DNA of 64,000 nucleotides from Candidatus Marinacidobacterium sp. (GTDB lineage: Bacteria > Acidobacteriota > Vicinamibacteria > Marinacidobacterales > Marinacidobacteraceae), in contig OZ242011.1 of the NCBI GenBank assembly GCA_965204755.1, positions 2,784,001 to 2,848,000 of the forward strand, read 5' to 3'. Below are positions 1 to 43,410 of the stretch, in pieces. The notes below the pieces were generated by a model that saw nothing but the letters and a program-made list of their open reading frames with translations, was not told the DNA's origin and did no database searches. The position numbers were made by a program, and so were the translations under genes. Numbering within the stretch: position 1 is the stretch's first letter; each line of letters begins with the position of its first letter.

Positions 1-439
1 CGACCGGGAGCGGGAAGTCCGGGACGAGTTGGCGCGGCGGCTCGAAGAGGCCGGCCTCGCGCCGCCGACGCTGGCCGACGCCGCGCGCGAGTTGGAGGCC
101 CCGGCGCCGCTGGTGGACGCGATGCGCCGGCTGCTCGCCCACGAGGGCCGCGCGGTGGTGGTGACGGCCGACCTGGCCTTCGACGCCGGGGCGCTCCGGT
201 CGCTGCGCGAGGCGGTCCGCGACCGGCGGGCGGTCAACCCGGAAGTCTCGGTCGGCTGGTTCAAGGAAGAGTTCGGGCTGAGCCGGAAGCACGCGATCCC
301 GCTGCTGGAGTGGCTCGACCGCGAGCGGGTGACGGTGCGGGTGGGGGATGTCCGCCGCATCCTCGCCCGCGCCGCGCCATCGTCGTCATCATCGGCGGCG
401 AAACCGGCGGCCGCCGTTCGCGGCGCTCCCGCGGCTTGA
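1..439 (+). CDS. selB: Selenocysteine-specific elongation factor, C-terminal winged-helix part (5' end outside window)
   Basis: FKEEFGLSRKHAIPLLEWLDRERVTVRVGDVR matches the SECIS-binding WH4 motif of SelB. Confidence 0.85.
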   Translation, partial: DREREVRDELARRLEEAGLAPPTLADAARELEAPAPLVDAMRRLLAHEGRAVVVTADLAFDAGALRSLREAVRDRRAVNPEVSVGWFKEEFGLSRKHAIPLLEWLDRERVTVRVGDVRRILARAAPSSSSSAAKPAAAVRGAPAA

Positions 440-34771: not shown

Positions 34772-34963
34772 TACTTTGGATTAGCCCCTATTAATTCAAC
34801 GAGTTACGGGCCGTCGTCGTCCGGAGTTCTCGAGTCGCCGCCCGCTCACGCCTCCATTTCGGGCCGAACAGTCCGGAATGTCCGCGGAGCGCCTACATCG
34901 CCGTGGCGCGCTCCGACCGGCCGTGGTTCGGCGGCGTTCCGCCACTACAATCCGCGGTGGTTC

Positions 34964-35334
34964 GAGTCGTTCAGACGGTCGCCGGCTCCCTTCGGGGGGC
35001 GGGAGGAAAGTCCGAACTCCGCAAGGCAGTGCGCTGGGTAACGCCCAGTCCGGGCAACTGGAAGGAAAGTGCCACAGAAAACAAACCGCCTCTCCGTTCG
35101 CGGAGCGGTAAGGGTGAAAAGGTGCGGTAAGAGCGCACCGCCCGGGCAGCGATGTCCGGGGCACGGTAAACCCCGCATGGAGCAAGACCAAATAGGGAAG
35201 CGCCCGAGGGCCGCCTGTCCGATGCTTCCGGGTAGGTCGCTCGATCCGGCGGGCAACCGTCGGGCTAGATACATGACCGCCGTCCCGTTCCGGGCGACCG
35301 GTTCGGGGAACAGAATTCGGCTTACGGGCGGCTC
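34964..35334 (+). ncRNA. rnpB: RNase P RNA (bacterial type A)
   Basis: GAGGAAAGTCCGAACTCC, AGTGCCACAGAAAA, GGTAAACCCC and AACAGAATTCGGCTTA; P1 GAGTCGTTC/GGGCGGCTC. Confidence 0.97.
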
Positions 35335-35392
35335 GGACCCTCGCCGCTCTCCCGACGAGGCGCGCCGCCCGCGGCCGGGGGCCTGAGTCTCG

Positions 35393-37945: not shown

Positions 37946-38029
37946 GTCGCCCCCGCCTTCGCGGCGGGTTTGGTCGGCGGGGTTCGGTCGGGGCCCGGCG
38001 CGGGGGTAACGCTTCGTTGGCGGTTCGGG

Positions 38030-38065
38030 GTCAACGCCGGTTGACGGGTGTCAACGGCGGTTGAC
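38030..38065. promoter_or_regulatory. Tandem palindromic operator-like sites GTCAAC-N4-GTTGAC
   Basis: Copies at 38030-38045 and 38050-38065, upstream of comEA. Confidence 0.5.
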
Positions 38066-38310
38066 GCCGGGGGGCGTCGGTTCGCTGCGTTGCGGGGCGG
38101 GGCCGCGGGGGTGGGGGAGTCGTTTCGATGCGATGGTTCTCGGTCTTCCGCGGGGTTTCGGGTTTCCCTTCGGCGGTCGGCGGGGCGTCGCTCGCCGGTC
38201 GGCGCGGTGGTTGCGGTCGGGAGGGGCAGCCGGGGCGAATGTCCCGGCGGCATCCGTCCCCGTCGCGGGACTTCACCACCCCAACCCGGGAACCCTCCAG
38301 GAGGAACCCC

Positions 38311-38691
38311 ATGATCCCGATGATCGCCCGCCGGGCCGCCACCCGGCTCTTCCCCGTTCGGCTCCTGCCGATCCGCTTCGTCGCGGTCGTCCTGACCGCG
38401 GCCGCGCTGCTGTTCGCGGCCCCGGTCGGCGTCGCCGCCGCGCAGCCGGACACTCCCATCGACATCAACTCCGCCAGCGCCGAGGAACTCACCGAACTGC
38501 CGCGCGTCGGCGAGGCCACCGCCGCGAAGATCGTCGCCTGGCGCGAGGAGAACGGCCCGTTCACCCAGACCCGTGAGTTGCTCAATGTCGAGGGGATCGG
38601 AGAGAAGACCTTCGAAGTCATCGAGCCCCATGTGACCGTCGGCAACTCCGGCGGCCCCCCGCCCGCGCCGGGAGGTCCCGAGGCGGGCTGA
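38311..38691 (+). CDS. comEA: ComEA helix-hairpin-helix DNA uptake protein
   Basis: Signal peptide; IDINSASAEEL..LPRVGEATA..VEGIGEK. Confidence 0.88.
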   Translation: MIPMIARRAATRLFPVRLLPIRFVAVVLTAAALLFAAPVGVAAAQPDTPIDINSASAEELTELPRVGEATAAKIVAWREENGPFTQTRELLNVEGIGEKTFEVIEPHVTVGNSGGPPPAPGGPEAG

Positions 38692-38734
38692 CCGGGGCGA
38701 CTCGGCGCAAGTCGAGCCACGGGGCGTCGGCGCG

Positions 38735-39472
38735 TTGCGGGCCTTCTCGCGGAAGGCGCCGCTCCCGGCGGAGGGCCGGCGCCGGCGCCCCGGTGAACCG
38801 GAGCGCCGGGGCCGTTCGGCGGCACCGTCGTCCCCCTCGAAGCACCTTCCGACCCGCCGGTCGGCCGCCCTGCGCGGTCGGCGCGGCGCGGCCGGTTTCA
38901 CGCTCACCGAGATGCTGGCCGCCTTCGCCCTGCTCGGCCTGCTGAGCGCGATGGCGGTCCCTCCCATCGTGGACAGTTTCCGGGCGCAGCGCGTCCGCCA
39001 CGCCGCGATGGCGCTGCGCACCCTCCTCCAGCGGACGCGCGCCGAAGCCGCCGCCCGCGCCGCCAATGTGGCGGTCGTTTTCGACCCGCCGGCCTCGGGG
39101 AATGCCCCCGCCGGAGCGGTGGTCCCCGGCGGCCCGCCCACGATCGCGGTGTACCTGGACGAGAACCACAACGGCGTCCGCCGCCGCGAGATCGCCGCCG
39201 GGGAGGAGCGCCTGCTCCGCCCGGCCTGGCGGTTCGACGAGCGGTTCCCCGGCGTGGAGTGGGGCGCCCCCTCCGAAACCGCCGGCGGCGCCCCCATCCC
39301 CGGCCTGGCGGTCGGCGTCGCGCGGATGGTTTCCTTCTCGCCGTTCGGCAGTTCCGGCAACGGCCGGATCACCGTCAGCGGCGCCGGCGTCGCCTATTCC
39401 GTCGTCATCCACGGCGGCAGTTCCCGAATCCGCCTCGAACGCCGCGCCGGAACCGTCTGGGTCCCCGCGTAA
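38735..39472 (+). CDS. Type IV minor pilin/pseudopilin (FimT/GspH-like)
   Basis: Prepilin motif AGFTLTEML followed by a hydrophobic helix; start uncertain. Confidence 0.75.
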   Translation: MRAFSRKAPLPAEGRRRRPGEPERRGRSAAPSSPSKHLPTRRSAALRGRRGAAGFTLTEMLAAFALLGLLSAMAVPPIVDSFRAQRVRHAAMALRTLLQRTRAEAAARAANVAVVFDPPASGNAPAGAVVPGGPPTIAVYLDENHNGVRRREIAAGEERLLRPAWRFDERFPGVEWGAPSETAGGAPIPGLAVGVARMVSFSPFGSSGNGRITVSGAGVAYSVVIHGGSSRIRLERRAGTVWVPA

Positions 39473-39520
39473 CCCGACCGCGACCCCTGCGCCGGTCGCG
39501 CTAGCACCCGTTCCCCCCGC

Positions 39521-39697
39521 GTGGGCGCCGCGAACCGCGCCTCCGCGGCGCCGCCTCCCCGGCCGCCGCCCCCGAAGACACCTTCAGCGCCCTGGTTCAC
39601 CGCTCGAGTGCAGAAGGTCCTCCTCGTCGTGGCGCTCCTCAACCTCCTCCTCGGCGCCGCCCGCCTCCTCGTCGGAATCGGAATCCTCCTGAAATGA
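39521..39697 (+). CDS. Small hydrophobic protein (58 aa; alternative GTG at 39608 gives 29 aa), not in the ORF track
   Basis: ..VQKVLLVVALLNLLLGAARLLVGIGILLK*; ATGA overlap with 39694. Confidence 0.45.
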   Translation: MGAANRASAAPPPRPPPPKTPSAPWFTARVQKVLLVVALLNLLLGAARLLVGIGILLK

Positions 39698-40377
39698 CCA
39701 CCCCGCCGAGGCGGAAGCCTCGAACGGGAGAGAACCGACTCGACCCGGACGACCCCCGCTCGCGACCTTCGAGCCCGGAACGGGGCGCCGGGCAATCCCT
39801 CATCGAGCACCTCGAAGAGAGACTCCGCTGCGCCGACGACGCCCGCGTACGCGCCGCCGTCCGCTCCATCGTCGAGAGCCCGATCCTCGAGGAATTCCGC
39901 GCCCGGGTCGCCGCCTACGACCGCGACCACCCGGAAGCGAGGAAGGGCGAAGGCCCGGTCGCCATCCCGCAACGAGAAATCCGCGCCCGCATCGGAGAAA
40001 TCCCCGTCGGCGTACTGACGCGCCGGGCGCGGACCGCGCTGAAATGTCCAACCGACGCGGAGTCCACTCTTTCGCCGATCGTCCGCCTCTCGGCGGAAAC
40101 CGCCCTCAAACAACTGAAGCACAGCGACCCCGGCCTCAAGAGACCGCTGACCAACGACGACTACCGCCTCCTTCCTGGGGTCATCGAGCACGGCGAGATG
40201 CTTTCCATTACCGACCACGAGTTGGCGTTCTTCCTCGAGGTGAAGGGAGAGTGGTATGCGGCTGTCGTCAAACGGACGGAAGACCACCGCGTCTATCTCA
40301 AGACCTTCCATCGCACGAAGGATCGAGACCGGCATGCGGCTCGGAGGCGCGCGGGCGAACGCAAGAGCCCGAAGTAG
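39694..40377 (+). CDS. Putative BECR/RelE-like ribonuclease resembling C-terminal toxin domains of phage MuF proteins
   Basis: LSAETALKQLKH..DYRLLPGVIEHGE..WYAAVVKRT..VYLKTFHR pattern, recognised from memory and not searched. Confidence 0.5.
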   Translation: MTTPPRRKPRTGENRLDPDDPRSRPSSPERGAGQSLIEHLEERLRCADDARVRAAVRSIVESPILEEFRARVAAYDRDHPEARKGEGPVAIPQREIRARIGEIPVGVLTRRARTALKCPTDAESTLSPIVRLSAETALKQLKHSDPGLKRPLTNDDYRLLPGVIEHGEMLSITDHELAFFLEVKGEWYAAVVKRTEDHRVYLKTFHRTKDRDRHAARRRAGERKSPK

Positions 40378-40380
40378 GGC

Positions 40381-40488
40381 GGCGCACGGTGGGGCCCGCC
40401 GTCCGGCCGAAGCCGGCATCCCCACATGGCACTCCGCTTCCGAAGAAGCGTGCTACGGCTGGCGGAAAATTACCGTGTCACGTGCGCC
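40381..40488 (-). ncRNA. Structured pseudoknotted RNA element, copy 1
   Basis: Terminal stem, two cUUCGg hairpins, 5-bp pseudoknot; TATGCT box at 40495-40500. Confidence 0.65.
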
Positions 40489-40773
40489 GGAGGAAGCATA
40501 GCACGCGGCGCGACTTGCACCGGCGAGCGCTGCGTCCGTCCGTCCCGATCCATCGAGACAGCAAAACGCGTGGAGACCGGACTCCGGCCCTCCAGCGCCA
40601 AGCGCCGTGGACCGCCGGCCCGACCGGACGGCCCCCATCCGAGCAGCAGACGGAGCCGTCATCGAACGGCGAATCTCCGGCATGACCCTCTACCCGAACC
40701 ACAAGGGAGACTCCCGGCGCAAGAAGCGACCAGTGGCGGCGGTAGGCCATTCGTGAACTGCTGCCGACAATGT

Positions 40774-40881
40774 GGCGCATGGTGGGGCCCGTACCCCGGC
40801 CGAAGCCGGCATCCCCACATAGCGCTCCGCTCCCGAAGAAGCGTGCTACGGCCTACGGAAAATCACCGTGTCACATGCGCC
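40774..40881 (-). ncRNA. Structured RNA element, copy 2
   Basis: Compensatory changes relative to copy 1; TCGACA-N17-TACCGT upstream on the minus strand. Confidence 0.65.
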
Positions 40882-40969
40882 GGGAGAACGGTAGCGCTCT
40901 CGGCGATGTCTGTCGAGCGCGGCCCGGCGGCCGAGAGGGCGAATCGGGGTTCCGCCCTCCGCAGCCGGT

Positions 40970-41077
40970 GGCGCATGGTGGGGCCCGTCGTCCGGCCGAA
41001 GCCGGCATCCCCACATGGCACTCCGCTCCCGCGGAAGCGTGCTACGGCTGACGGAGAATCACCGTGTCACATGCGCC
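40970..41077 (-). ncRNA. Structured RNA element, copy 3
   Basis: Same fold; TATGGT at 41084-41089. Confidence 0.65.
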
Positions 41078-41169
41078 GGGAGAACCATAACGCGCTCGGC
41101 GACGCTTGTTGTCGAGTGTGGCCCGGCGGCCGAATCGGGCGGAACGGGGTTTCGCCCTCCGCAGGCGGT

Positions 41170-41276
41170 GGCGCATGGTGGGGCCCGCCCCCCGGCCGAA
41201 GCCGGCATCCCCACATGTCGCTCCGCTTCCGGGGAAGCGTGCTACGGCCGGCGGAAAATTACCGTGTCCATGCGCC
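41170..41276 (-). ncRNA. Structured RNA element, copy 4
   Basis: Same fold; TACGCT at 41283-41288. Confidence 0.65.
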
Positions 41277-41375
41277 GGTGGAAGCGTAGCGCGCTCAGCG
41301 ACGCAAACCGCCGGGCGAGGCGCGGGGTTGCCGGATTTCGCAGTCGACCCTTCGCTGATCGGGGTCAAGCGAGGT

Positions 41376-41484
41376 GGCGCACGGTGGGGCCCCCAATCCA
41401 AGCAGCGCTTGGCAACCCCACATAGCGCTCAGTCCCATCGGGATCCGGCTACGGCATGGGGAATAACACCGTGTCGCGTACGCC
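41376..41484 (-). ncRNA. Structured RNA element, copy 5 (divergent)
   Basis: Hairpins replaced but still paired; pseudoknot CCCCA/TGGGG; TACGAT at 41492-41497. Confidence 0.6.
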
Positions 41485-41665
41485 GCCCGGAATCGTAGCC
41501 GCCCTTCGAGGACGGCGCGTCGCATCGGAACCGTGGCTCTCGCCGAAGACTTGGGGAGGGGCGTAGCGGGCAGGCCGGTCCCGACCTGCCGGTACTGAGC
41601 CCGGGTGAGAACTAGGCTGCCATCGGCGTGGCGCTCGACCGCCGCCCCGCGGGCTGGCCGGCCGC

Positions 41666-42124
41666 CTACTCGTCGCTGCCGCGGGTCAACTCGGCGTCGC
41701 GCACCGACAGACGCGGCCACGCCCGAATCTCCCGGAACGCGTCGCCGTCCACGGCGACGATCGGCGGGACCGCCGGGTACATCTCCTCCCCTACGAAGGC
41801 GGCCAGGGCGACGAAGGCGTCCACGCCGCGGGTGATGAGGGCGGCGGGGGCGGTGCCGCGGCGGATCGCTTCGAGCAGCACCGCCGCCGTCGTCGAAGAT
41901 CCGCGGGTGGCGGGCAGCGCCAGGACCCGGCCGGCGCCGTTCTTCCCGGCGAGCGGGTGGTGGGGGTCGGTGATGCGGCCGTTCGCCGCGTCGTAACCGC
42001 CCCAGAAACTGAGCGGTTCGTCCGAATGGAGGACCGGCCCCTCCGCTTCCCCGGCGATCACGACCCGTCCGACCAGCCGCGAAGCGGGCGGCGATTCGCC
42101 GGTCGCCCCCGTCTTCAGTCCCAC
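41666..42124 (-). CDS. Aconitase X swivel subunit (DUF126)
   Basis: GEAEG..EPLSFWGG.D..GRITD.HHPL.G..RGSST. Confidence 0.85.
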   Translation of the reverse strand: MGLKTGATGESPPASRLVGRVVIAGEAEGPVLHSDEPLSFWGGYDAANGRITDPHHPLAGKNGAGRVLALPATRGSSTTAAVLLEAIRRGTAPAALITRGVDAFVALAAFVGEEMYPAVPPIVAVDGDAFREIRAWPRLSVRDAELTRGSDE

Positions 42125-43410
42125 GGCGACGGCTCCCGAACCACGCGTCCGGCGCGCGCGGAAGCGACGCACTCGCCGAGGCTGCCGAAGGCGACTTCGG
42201 CGTCCAGCAGGCCGGGTGCGTACCACGCGTACTTCGCCGAGTTCGTCATGAGCCGGCGCGCGCCCGCCGGCAGCATCGGCGTGGCCAGGATGCAGGTGTC
42301 CACCGTCACCTGGCCGCCGAAGGCCCGCAGCGGGTCCAGCAACCCGGCGCGCTCCACCAGCGCGGCGACGCCGCGGCTGGTCGTCACGAGGAACCGGCAG
42401 CCCGGGTGGCGTTCGCCCCCCCGCGCGCGGATCTCCGCCGCCAACTTCTCGAACTCGCCGAAGGAGAAGTGGGGGCTGCCGAGCACCACGAGGTCCAACT
42501 CGCCTTCGGCGCGGCGGTTCAACTCGGCTCTCGCGGCGCGGAGTTCCGCCATACCCACCTTCCGCGCCTCCTTCGGCGGACGCCCGCCGAGCGCGTCCCG
42601 CAGCGTCGGCGCCTCCGGTGTTACGCCGGGCAGGTGGAAGAGCGCCACCGCTCCCGAAGAAGCCGCCGCCGCTCCCAGCGCCTTCAGTCGATCTTCTCCC
42701 GGCGTCCCCGGTATCCCGACGATGGCCGCCGGTTCGTCCCCCGCCCACGGGCCGAGCAGGTGCCCGAGCACGGGGTGGAAGTCGTCGGTCTCCGCGAGCG
42801 CCTCCGGAACGCCCGAGAGTTCCAGCACCCGCGTCGCGAGCCGGTTTTCTTCCAGGTGGAGTCCCACCGCGGGAGCGCGCCCGGTGATCGCGCAGCACAC
42901 ATCGAGCAGGTCGGGATAGCGCTCGGTGCGCGCGCCGAGCACCGAGTTCGCGAAGACCACGGCGTTCGACTCGCCCCAGGCGATCTGCTGCCCGAACTTC
43001 GGCGCGTGCTCGGTTTGGTACGGGGCGCAGGTCCAGGTGGGAATCGTCCCCATCGAGTCGTAGGCGCGCATCTGCCGCGCCGACTTCTCCGCCCATTCCG
43101 CCGGCACCGCCCATTCCCGCCAGTGGAACTCGTCGAGCCCGCTCACATTCAGCGTCGAGGGCACCCGGACCTTGGCGCCGAGTCCGGCGAGGCGCTCGGC
43201 GAACTCCAATCCGGCGTCGCCCACATAGATCGTGCTGTCGATGTGCGCGCTCTCGATGTCGAGCAGGGTATCGGCGCCCCGCGCCTCCGCCATCCGCGCC
43301 ACGATGCGCATCGCGAGGCGCGCCGCTTCCCCCTCCTCCCCGGCCAGCAGCGAACGGTCGCGCTCGTCGAGGCGCAAACTCCCGGCGCTCCCGGACTCCG
43401 GCCCGGTCAT
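42115..43410 (-). CDS. Aconitase X catalytic subunit (DUF521)
   Basis: AHIDS, TWTCAPY, AWGESNAVVFANSVLGART, LGSPHFS, DTC and TNSAKY. Confidence 0.88.
   Translation of the reverse strand: MTGPESGSAGSLRLDERDRSLLAGEEGEAARLAMRIVARMAEARGADTLLDIESAHIDSTIYVGDAGLEFAERLAGLGAKVRVPSTLNVSGLDEFHWREWAVPAEWAEKSARQMRAYDSMGTIPTWTCAPYQTEHAPKFGQQIAWGESNAVVFANSVLGARTERYPDLLDVCCAITGRAPAVGLHLEENRLATRVLELSGVPEALAETDDFHPVLGHLLGPWAGDEPAAIVGIPGTPGEDRLKALGAAAASSGAVALFHLPGVTPEAPTLRDALGGRPPKEARKVGMAELRAARAELNRRAEGELDLVVLGSPHFSFGEFEKLAAEIRARGGERHPGCRFLVTTSRGVAALVERAGLLDPLRAFGGQVTVDTCILATPMLPAGARRLMTNSAKYAWYAPGLLDAEVAFGSLGECVASARAGRVVREPSPWD

Follow-up and report, generated by a model that had tools for sequence, protein, structure and literature searches.

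The 64,000-nt stretch of contig OZ242011.1 analysed here (the window), from a Candidatus Marinacidobacterium sp., contains a gene for a 227-aa protein (P0001) with a predicted ribonuclease (RNase) domain at its C-terminus, followed directly and on the same strand by five tandem copies of a structured RNA. The RNA folds as a four-way junction with a loop-loop pseudoknot and a short 3′ tail, ~125 nt overall, and is apparently an undescribed class. Copies of this RNA are found behind genes for the same domain in viral contigs, metagenomes and related genomes, and the RNA is very probably the cognate partner of the domain, which homology and residue pattern place in the PBECR/MuF-C clade of predicted BECR RNases. 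Here, we set out the evidence for this pairing, describe the RNA and the protein, and weigh what the one might do for the other.

When IMG/VR contigs were searched on the basis of the RNA (with a three-motif pattern, then a covariance-model scan), the pattern matched 79 contigs, 77 of which gave model hits (78 hits, 40–99 bits). The open reading frame (ORF) encoding the domain stops no more than 10 nt before the RNA start in 53 of these hits, 11–60 nt before it in 18 and farther away in one; the remaining hits comprise three without room upstream and three with room but no domain. The RNA therefore lies within 60 nt of the stop codon of a domain gene in 71 of the 75 evaluable hits. Viral loci found via the protein alone give the same picture, with the RNA directly behind the domain in 29 of 31 (29 of the 30 evaluable); the two loci without RNA are a contig that is cut 30 nt past the gene and a relative of only 32% identity. 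Copy 1 of the window is 60–77% identical (mean 69%) to 65 viral copies. Among the metagenome matches listed, 27 of the 80 pattern loci are true and 17 of these have the domain directly upstream, while seven lack it despite at least 900 nt of upstream room, one of the seven having a broken remnant. Two metagenome loci carry several copies with no detectable domain gene upstream: L358:931-1141, where two RNA copies abut behind a terminator-like hairpin, and L326:360-769, with three copies at a ~155-nt period. For genome records, 12 of the 80 pattern loci among the matches listed are true, under titles that name Maricaulaceae, Gamma- and Betaproteobacteria, Marinobacter, Thiobacillus, Zoogloeaceae, Brachymonas, Desulfovibrio, Desulfocurvus and a Candidatus Marinacidobacterium. 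The other 68 are false positives; more than 20 loci from a Salinarimonas metagenome-assembled genome (L111-L113, L118, L122, L124, L127-L130, L134, L144, L150, L152, L154, L155, L160, L172, L173, L179, L180) proved to be another, dispersed palindromic repeat, resembling repetitive extragenic palindromic (REP) elements and consisting of two GC-rich hairpins. A pattern derived from protein alignment A3 gave 164 matches in metagenome contigs, none of which was confirmed, and 50,697 records of isolated phage genomes gave no match by blastn with one 110-nt viral RNA copy or by tblastn with one divergent 125-aa viral domain, which is a weak test.

In phages, the RNA fills the gap between the gene for the minor head protein MuF and a gpG-like gene. 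An ORF of 154–185 aa starts 7–34 nt past the RNA in 33 of the 77 copies outside the genus (73 on viral contigs and four in genome records), and the one such ORF that was tested belongs to PF05069, the Mu gpG family. The RNA thus fills the junction between F and G exactly, and no small ORF fits there. For MuF toxins, a small presumed immunity ORF is given downstream of 89.4% of 191 genes in the available sections of Jamet et al. (2017, PMC5576092). Phage Mu has no space for the RNA, its F and G genes overlapping by 4 nt; its MuF-C domain is called inactive, and a predicted RNA binder, in the available text of Iyer et al. (2017, PMC5512222). One viral contig (L053) shows a longer head block, in the order MuF, RNA, two inserted genes of lower GC, head protease, virion protein, major head protein and connector proteins, with an ORF upstream of the RNA that matches phrog_220 ('minor head protein and DNA pilot'). 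The two inserts (L053:2975-4535) match phrog_10040 and phrog_20580, both of unknown function, and stand where other contigs have the gpG-like gene. The array in the window, from which the original prediction (made from the letters of the window, without database searches) had set out, does exist, but such amplification is specific to this lineage, and more commonly a single copy sits between MuF and a gpG-like gene.

The genome that includes the window (G000) holds 13 RNA copies and eight ORFs with the domain. Three P0001-like paralogues have the RNA directly 3′ of them, in 5, 1 and 4 copies, leaving three of the 13 copies without a domain gene at their head; nhmmer with the RNA retrieved no further similar locus in this genome. 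A congener (G001) has 32 copies, of which 14 are not directly headed by a domain gene and the others form arrays of 5, 6 and 5 or stand as two single copies behind domain genes. Four other genomes of the family have one or two copies each, directly behind a P0001 match in two of them (G021 and G024), and 16 genomes of two sister families have none. Across G001, G021 and G024, six protein matches are followed by a same-strand RNA 6–43 nt downstream. In G000 and its congener, the domain is thus a free-standing, multi-copy gene accompanied by RNA arrays of one to six copies, plus orphans. The presence of the RNA tracks the predicted active site: the RNA-linked paralogues of G000 keep a Lys-x-Thr motif (in one case Lys-Gln-Ala-Thr) at the positions of K193 and T195, while the RNA-less domain copies have lost the Lys in all four that are alignable there, the other two being unaligned over the strand. 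The original prediction had asked whether related elements sit 3′ of MuF or BECR genes elsewhere; they do so in other loci, genomes and phages.

Some copies in these genomes have other surroundings. One orphan of G000 lies ~70 nt past the stop codon of a 1091-aa DUF1156 gene (C1:3088950-3092225; RNA at 3092297-3092412); the other two, in the locus C1:1989631-1990829, are found upstream of a gene for a DUF5131 (phage Gp37/Gp68-like) protein. A DUF5131-like ORF in G001 likewise has RNA copies around it. Elsewhere in G001 (L276, C1:3537700-3544500), three consecutive same-strand ORFs encode the domain, with the RNA after the first and the second. The third begins like MuF, and the locus may be the head block of a Mu-like prophage with duplicated modules.

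Within the window, a covariance model (R1) was built from the five copies and run without filters over 38000-43000. It returned exactly five matches (103–136 bits), the next best scoring 13 bits and the minus strand at the five positions 9.6 bits at most. The element is ~113 nt long and the copies are spaced by 393, 196, 200 and 206/207 nt, with spacers of 83–280 nt between them. The first element begins 1 nt past the P0001 stop codon (TAG, 40375-40377) and its outer stem, GGCGCACG, begins at 40381, 3 nt past the stop. Five copies at this spacing, starting 3 nt after the gene, are what had been predicted; the ~108-nt length given for the element falls short, as the conserved unit extends to ~113 nt plus a 3′ tail. 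No degenerate sixth copy turned up when the 280-nt first spacer was scanned without filters. Repeats of 24 and 20 nt shared by spacers 2 and 3 indicate that the duplicated unit is the RNA together with its spacer, ~196–200 nt. Between the stop codon and the next gene there is RNA only: no ORF separates P0001 from the array, in agreement with the earlier remark that a downstream immunity ORF is lacking. A scan of the locus gave no promoter-like site and no terminator-like site inside the array. Contigs from four DNA runs carry the locus in related strains, with assemblies that break at the RNA repeats.

The fold of the RNA (Table 1) is supported by comparison of copies at three levels. In the window, copy 1 has GGCGCACG/CGTGCGCC as its outer stem, copies 2–4 have GGCGCATG/CATGCGCC, and copy 5 shows one C-A mismatch there; GTGGGG/CCCCAC is identical in all five copies, and the inner hairpin CCGGC-CGAA-GCCGG is replaced by CCAAGC-AGC-GCTTGG in copy 5. 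Pairing holds in 94.7% of cells, and in 25 of 25 for the pseudoknot, three of whose five pairs are altered on both sides; the covariation score was reached by none of 500 shuffles. The stems and the pseudoknot read from these letters in the original prediction are therefore all borne out. Across 39 distinct copies from this genome and its relatives, twelve different pseudoknot sequences, read from the alignment, are fully complementary. Lastly, 63 distinct copies from viral contigs show compensatory changes in 20 of 38 pairs, distributed over S1 (7/8), the pseudoknot (3/5), S3 (4/5) and the distal part of S4 (6/6). Their pairing of 94.1% falls to 38–50% when partners are slid by 1–3 columns, and again none of 500 shuffles reached their covariation score. 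S2 and S5 are invariant across these viral copies and hence uninformative on covariation. The proximal part of S4, without compensatory change, holds G-U pairs at two positions (conserved in 49 and 58 of the 63 copies), which, together with the strand asymmetry of the model scores, point to an RNA that is probably made from the strand of the gene. Single-sequence folding is weak (z –1.3 to –2.3, with minimum-energy structures that differ among copies), so the support for the structure is comparative rather than thermodynamic.

Two other readings of the fold were considered and set aside. A tRNA cloverleaf is suggested by the way the arms succeed one another and by the loop-loop contact, but the S1-S2 and S4-S5 helices are continuous, the 'anticodon' hairpin is variable and ARAGORN is silent. 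A stimulator of read-through or frameshifting would fit the fixed position at the stop codon; it is contradicted by the arrays and the orphan copies.

The 3′ tail follows the consensus GGnA..R-UAG-C, 6–8 nt past the outer stem. Of 114 copies, 83 have a UAG within the 24 nt that follow the element, whereas shuffling gives a mean of 26% (maximum 36%). In phages, the tail and the ribosome-binding region of the gpG-like gene overlap, but arrays with no ORF behind them retain the tail all the same; an equivalent conserved tail is also present at L053:2975-2990. A pairing of the tail UAGC with the invariant core GCUA was considered, with only four pairs that are general; these are all invariant, and so the pairing gives no covariation to assess.

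The RNA matches no known family. Searching the region with Rfam 15 gave no match at gathering thresholds, and the four at E ≤ 10 are weak and unrelated, in keeping with the original claim of a new element; ARAGORN found neither a tRNA nor a tmRNA in the region. In the literature, as far as the available texts go, the RNA is not described, including in a survey of structured phage RNAs and a 2026 preprint on non-coding elements, and supplements (e.g. the >10,000 candidates of PMC10690425) may list it.

P0001 has a disordered N-terminus, a helical linker and a BECR domain of the PBECR/MuF-C type. By itself, it matched no family of Pfam, PADLOC or PHROGs at E ≤ 0.05 (and none of Pfam at E ≤ 0.1), lacks PF04233 and passes no Pfam threshold for PBECR1-5 or MuF_C; a sequence-profile search of the PDB gave two chance-level rows only. 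Its 28 homologues of near-equal length have no Pfam domain either. The family becomes recognisable through longer relatives: a profile search of 1.84 billion representatives gave 512 matches at E ≤ 0.001, many of them ~400 aa long and matching at their C-termini, and a Jackhmmer search seeded with P0001 picks up the ~400-aa ORFs that stand ahead of the RNA in viral contigs, matching their C-terminal ~125 aa. Phage_Mu_F (PF04233) is N-terminal in all eight of these RNA-preceding viral ORFs that were tested, and PBECR3 is found in one of the eight (E 2.1e-4; 21.6 bits, under the 30-bit cut-off). Residues 33-68 of P0001 align to the MuF linker. The alignment to MuF proteins is confined to this linker and the C-terminal domain, so P0001 is the C-terminal half of a MuF protein that has turned into a separate gene. 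By sequence comparison, its C-terminal ~130 residues share homology, at 20–33% identity, with the domain that ends the MuF minor head proteins of Mu-like phages.

The residue pattern and the predicted fold agree with this placement. Among 21 homologues, H143 is invariant and T195 nearly so, and the same columns are conserved in phage MuF C-termini; K139, Q140 and K193 are invariant or near-invariant as well. The AlphaFold2 (AF2) model (pLDDT 80.5, mostly >90 in the following elements) has a helix (134-143), which holds K139, Q140 and H143, and four strands (168-173, 176-183, 186-194 and 200-208), with K193 in the third of them and T195 just past it. For the PBECR clade, including 'MuF-C', a BECR RNase with a site formed by a His in the helix and a Thr/Ser in strand 4 was predicted, along with an RNA-related role, in the sections of PMC5512222 available; we equate T195 with this strand-4 residue through sequence alignment, not structural superposition. 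The top VIA-align rows for the model are RelE/ParE-type toxins, BrnT, CdiA-CT tRNases, colicin D and colicin E5 (Z 3–4.7, all <5), and Foldseek found nothing in the PDB at E ≤ 0.001 (best BrnT, E 0.075). Feature neighbours in the ESM Atlas carry MuF_C, PBECR3 or PBECR2 (scores 0.91–0.94), which we treat as a lead only. The likeness to BECR domains at MuF C-termini noticed in the original prediction has thus been upheld by the Jackhmmer homology, the BECR-like model and the His/Thr pattern. Several predicted proteins of relatives in alignment A3 (P0015, P0016, P0020-P0025 and P0028) end in '...AHGGA...GNPT', the translation of the first 50 nt of the RNA, which shows that gene callers extend the ORF over part of the RNA when the stop codon has shifted.

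Table 1. Features of the P0001 locus, in window coordinates, and elements of the RNA fold, in columns of alignment A2
Feature	Position	Strand	Description and evidence
P0001 gene, 227 aa	39694-40377	+	ORF; coding-like codon-position GC; homologues; AF2 model; Jackhmmer to MuF C-termini
Predicted RNase domain, residues 95-227	39976-40374	+	Conserved columns; model elements; fold neighbours
RNA copy 1	40379-40491	+	Pseudoknot CCGCC/GGCGG; 135.9 bits
3′ tail of RNA copy 1, GGAAGCATAGCAC	40492-40504	+	Conserved; tail listing; UAG enrichment
Long spacer 1	40505-40771	+	No degenerate copy; best match ≤8.6 bits in filter-free scan
RNA copy 2	40772-40884	+	Pseudoknot CCGTA/TACGG; 133.4 bits
RNA copy 3	40968-41080	+	Pseudoknot CCGTC/GACGG; 132.7 bits
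RNA copy 4	41168-41279	+	Pseudoknot CCGCC/GGCGG; 124.7 bits
RNA copy 5	41374-41487	+	Most divergent, hairpins changed; pseudoknot CCCCA/TGGGG; 103 bits; compensatory changes
Tails of RNA copies 2-5	40885-40897, 41081-41093, 41280-41292, 41488-41501	+	Equivalent to copy 1 tail
S1, outer stem	columns 3-10 with 104-111		Continuous with S2
S2	columns 11-16 with 43-48		Internal loop bears hairpin S3
S3, hairpin	columns 25-29 with 34-39		
S4, two-part arm	columns 51-54 with 74-77 (proximal), 58-63 with 68-73 (distal)		
S5, short arm	columns 78-81 with 96-99		
Pseudoknot, 5 bp	columns 18-22 with 84-88		S2 internal loop with S5 loop

What the RNA does for its partner is less certain than the partnership. 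We tentatively favour, at somewhat short of an even chance, an RNA that protects against the RNase as an immunity factor or antitoxin, in the manner of type III toxin-antitoxin systems but outside their known families. The RNA has its usual home in the head-gene block of Mu-like phages, with one copy at the MuF stop codon; in the present lineage the C-terminal half of MuF has turned into a free-standing chromosomal gene with several copies, and amplification of the RNA has given rise to arrays. The RNA would be co-transcribed with the gene, fold once the terminating ribosome departs and then bind the new RNase domain, which in its bound state would be harmless in the producing cell; the domain might first cut the RNA into units. 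In this way, the RNA would occupy the slot in which polymorphic-toxin loci keep their immunity gene. A ribosome that terminates 1–3 nt before S1 must unfold the RNA, which would refold beside the released domain, and this would favour capture in cis. We prefer the antitoxin reading because of this capture in cis and the immunity slot, because the RNA tracks intact active sites, because there is no protein candidate, and because the arrays and orphan copies resemble, by analogy, orphan immunity cassettes. A bolder form of this reading, possible but held with less confidence, is that an injected phage effector or polymorphic toxin here has, as the first of its kind, an immunity factor made of RNA: possibly mimicking a substrate, the RNA would capture the MuF-RNase as it emerges from the ribosome and silence it up to its packaging into the capsid, and bacteria would have adopted the pair as a type III-like module of reversed order, whose arrays and orphans may soak up the RNases of incoming Mu-like phages.

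Several observations weigh against an antitoxin. In phages, there is one RNA per mRNA, so that stoichiometric neutralisation would require MuF to be translated sparingly or the RNA to persist. The RNA is conserved far beyond the domain (60–77% against 20–33% identity), which is opposite to what is expected of an antidote that diversifies with its toxin, unless the RNA mimics a conserved cellular substrate, although the nhmmer search of this genome brought up no other similar locus. Some copies have no domain gene upstream (3 of 75 evaluable viral hits, 7 of 27 metagenome loci, three of the 13 in G000 and 14 of the 32 in G001). One distant relative of the domain (L261) keeps the Lys and Thr and has no detectable RNA, while at another locus (L057) the domain is degenerate, without the Lys-Gln...His motif, and the RNA is kept. 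Finally, PBECR domains count as RNases by prediction only, and the fold matches of P0001 are weak (nothing at E ≤ 0.001 by Foldseek, VIA-align Z <5).

Rather unlikely, but the most serious of the rivals, is that the RNA is the cleavage or recognition site of the RNase. The domain would cut its own polycistronic late mRNA (e.g. in the GGnA tail or the ribosome-binding region), giving a negative feedback on MuF and gpG like that of T4 RegB, and arrays would be processed to units. The linkage of gene and RNA and the correlation with an intact Lys/Thr apply here equally, the high conservation of the RNA suits a recognition structure, and the GGnA/UAG tail lies just 5′ of the gpG-like start codon in those 33 of 77 copies that are closely followed by an ORF. 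RegB is moreover cited as a BECR RNase that cuts phage early mRNAs in the available text of PMC5512222. A cleavage site does not readily explain arrays of up to six copies or orphans without a coding sequence, nor why the RNA is kept where unrelated genes follow instead of gpG (L053). The two readings overlap, since type III antitoxins are both substrate and inhibitor.

An element of the late transcript that works in cis and independently of the protein is improbable. It might serve as a 3′ stabiliser or insulator, provide translational coupling for the gpG-like gene or be a new self-cleaving ribozyme, linked to the domain by nothing more than a shared junction. The many conserved unpaired nucleotides and the pseudoknot would suit it, as in ribozymes and riboswitch-like RNAs, as would the exact position between two genes and the copies without a domain; tandem arrays are known for small ribozymes as well. 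However, the RNA stays with the domain outside the phage head block, after loss of the MuF core and gpG, and it is absent where the domain is inactive (Mu) and from the RNA-less paralogues. The search of Rfam 15 returned no ribozyme or other family even at E ≤ 10, and association with a single domain is unusual for self-cleaving ribozymes, as argued for the DUF3800 motifs in the available sections of Weinberg et al. (2017, PMC5737381).

We consider it quite doubtful that the RNA is cargo, packed into the capsid by the C-terminal domain of MuF, injected with the DNA and active as a decoy or regulator in the new host, with the arrays as host-side copies. MuF is a head component thought to be injected, and the inactive MuF-C of Mu is predicted to bind RNA (both in the available text of PMC5512222); the 'DNA pilot' match of L053 would fit, too. 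The RNA-linked domains nevertheless keep their catalytic pattern, the sole predicted pure binder, that of Mu, comes without the RNA, and free-standing chromosomal genes without the MuF core are not packageable. To our knowledge, there is no precedent for a cargo RNA of this kind.

A dispersed repeat at the DNA level, akin to REP elements or miniature inverted-repeat transposable elements, with no RNA function and clustered near these genes by chance, is very improbable: its variable copy number (13 here, 32 in G001, one, two or none in other genomes of the family) and solitary intergenic copies in either orientation relative to their neighbours stand against compensatory changes in five helices including the pseudoknot, conserved G-U pairs with strand-specific scores, a same-strand position at the stop codon that is fixed across phages of several bacterial classes, and a sequence conserved across very distant hosts. 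The original prediction had named a genome-wide repeat without a link to the gene family as the finding that would speak against it; one half of this was found, in that the copies are partly dispersed, but the link to the gene is strong.

Compared with known systems, the antitoxin reading comes closest to type III toxin-antitoxin systems (ToxIN, CptIN and TenpIN), which, as far as the available sources describe them, likewise combine an endoribonuclease-type protein with a tandem pseudoknotted RNA on the same strand, without a protein antidote and with links to phages. The differences are considerable. At all linked loci here the gene comes first and the RNA follows on its 3′ side, whereas in type III systems the RNA is 5′ of the toxin; the unit is a four-way junction of ~113–125 nt, with spacers of 83–280 nt between copies and most carriers having a single copy; and the protein is BECR/RelE-like, usually the C-terminal domain of a virion protein, and not of the ToxN type. 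The repeat unit of type III antitoxins is ~35 nt. P0001 matched no Pfam or PADLOC family at E ≤ 0.001, including ToxN/AbiQ, CptN and TenpN. In the features tested, order and toxin family, the pair is thus not a type III system.

The remaining likenesses are to phage proteins and to other RNA motifs. MuF polymorphic toxins join a MuF head module to a C-terminal predicted nuclease and are expected to have a protective factor directly downstream (available sections of PMC5576092); here, a structured RNA and not a small ORF takes this slot, and P0001 lacks the MuF module. The PBECR/MuF-C domains of polyvalent proteins are of the same clade, with the same MuF fusion and His plus Thr/Ser site, while the parts of PMC5512222 available report no associated RNA. 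The phage BECR-fold RNase RegB of T4, which acts on the phage's own mRNAs, is similar as cited in the same parts of that paper. The DUF3800-associated, drum and skipping-rope motifs (PMC5737381, in the sections available) are complex conserved RNAs of unknown function that are each tied to one nearby protein domain; unlike the present RNA, with its fixed same-strand site at the stop codon and its different protein family and fold, they occur on either side and in either orientation of the gene, often with a terminator after them. Returning to T4, its RegB is a free early protein with a short recognition motif and no dedicated structured RNA partner.

The RNA represents a class of structured RNAs that is widespread, apparently undescribed and clearly partnered with one protein domain; it is present in viral contigs, in genome records titled as Alpha-, Beta- and Gammaproteobacteria, Desulfovibrio and Desulfocurvus, and in the high-GC lineage of the window. 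Phage virion and polyvalent proteins often contain PBECR/MuF-C domains, and the RNA offers a concrete candidate ligand or substrate for them. If it is an antidote, RNA-based toxin control would extend beyond the three type III families to BECR RNases and phage-delivered effectors, and the absence of immunity genes at these MuF 'toxins' would be explained. A covariance model of the RNA would, in addition, mend the annotations that run into it.

The surroundings of the locus are those of an ordinary chromosomal region. The flanking genes encode an M23 peptidase, an HHH_3 ComEA-like protein and, on the opposite strand, AcnX, so the locus is not within a prophage. The frame of P0001 is the sole coding-like one in this region (codon-position GC 0.70/0.50/0.80), and its third-position GC of 0.80, compared with 0.87–0.95 in neighbouring genes, suggests a foreign origin, consistent with a phage source. 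Unrelated to the array, the window also holds a full-length bacterial RNase P RNA of class A at 34963-35339 on the plus strand (301 bits).

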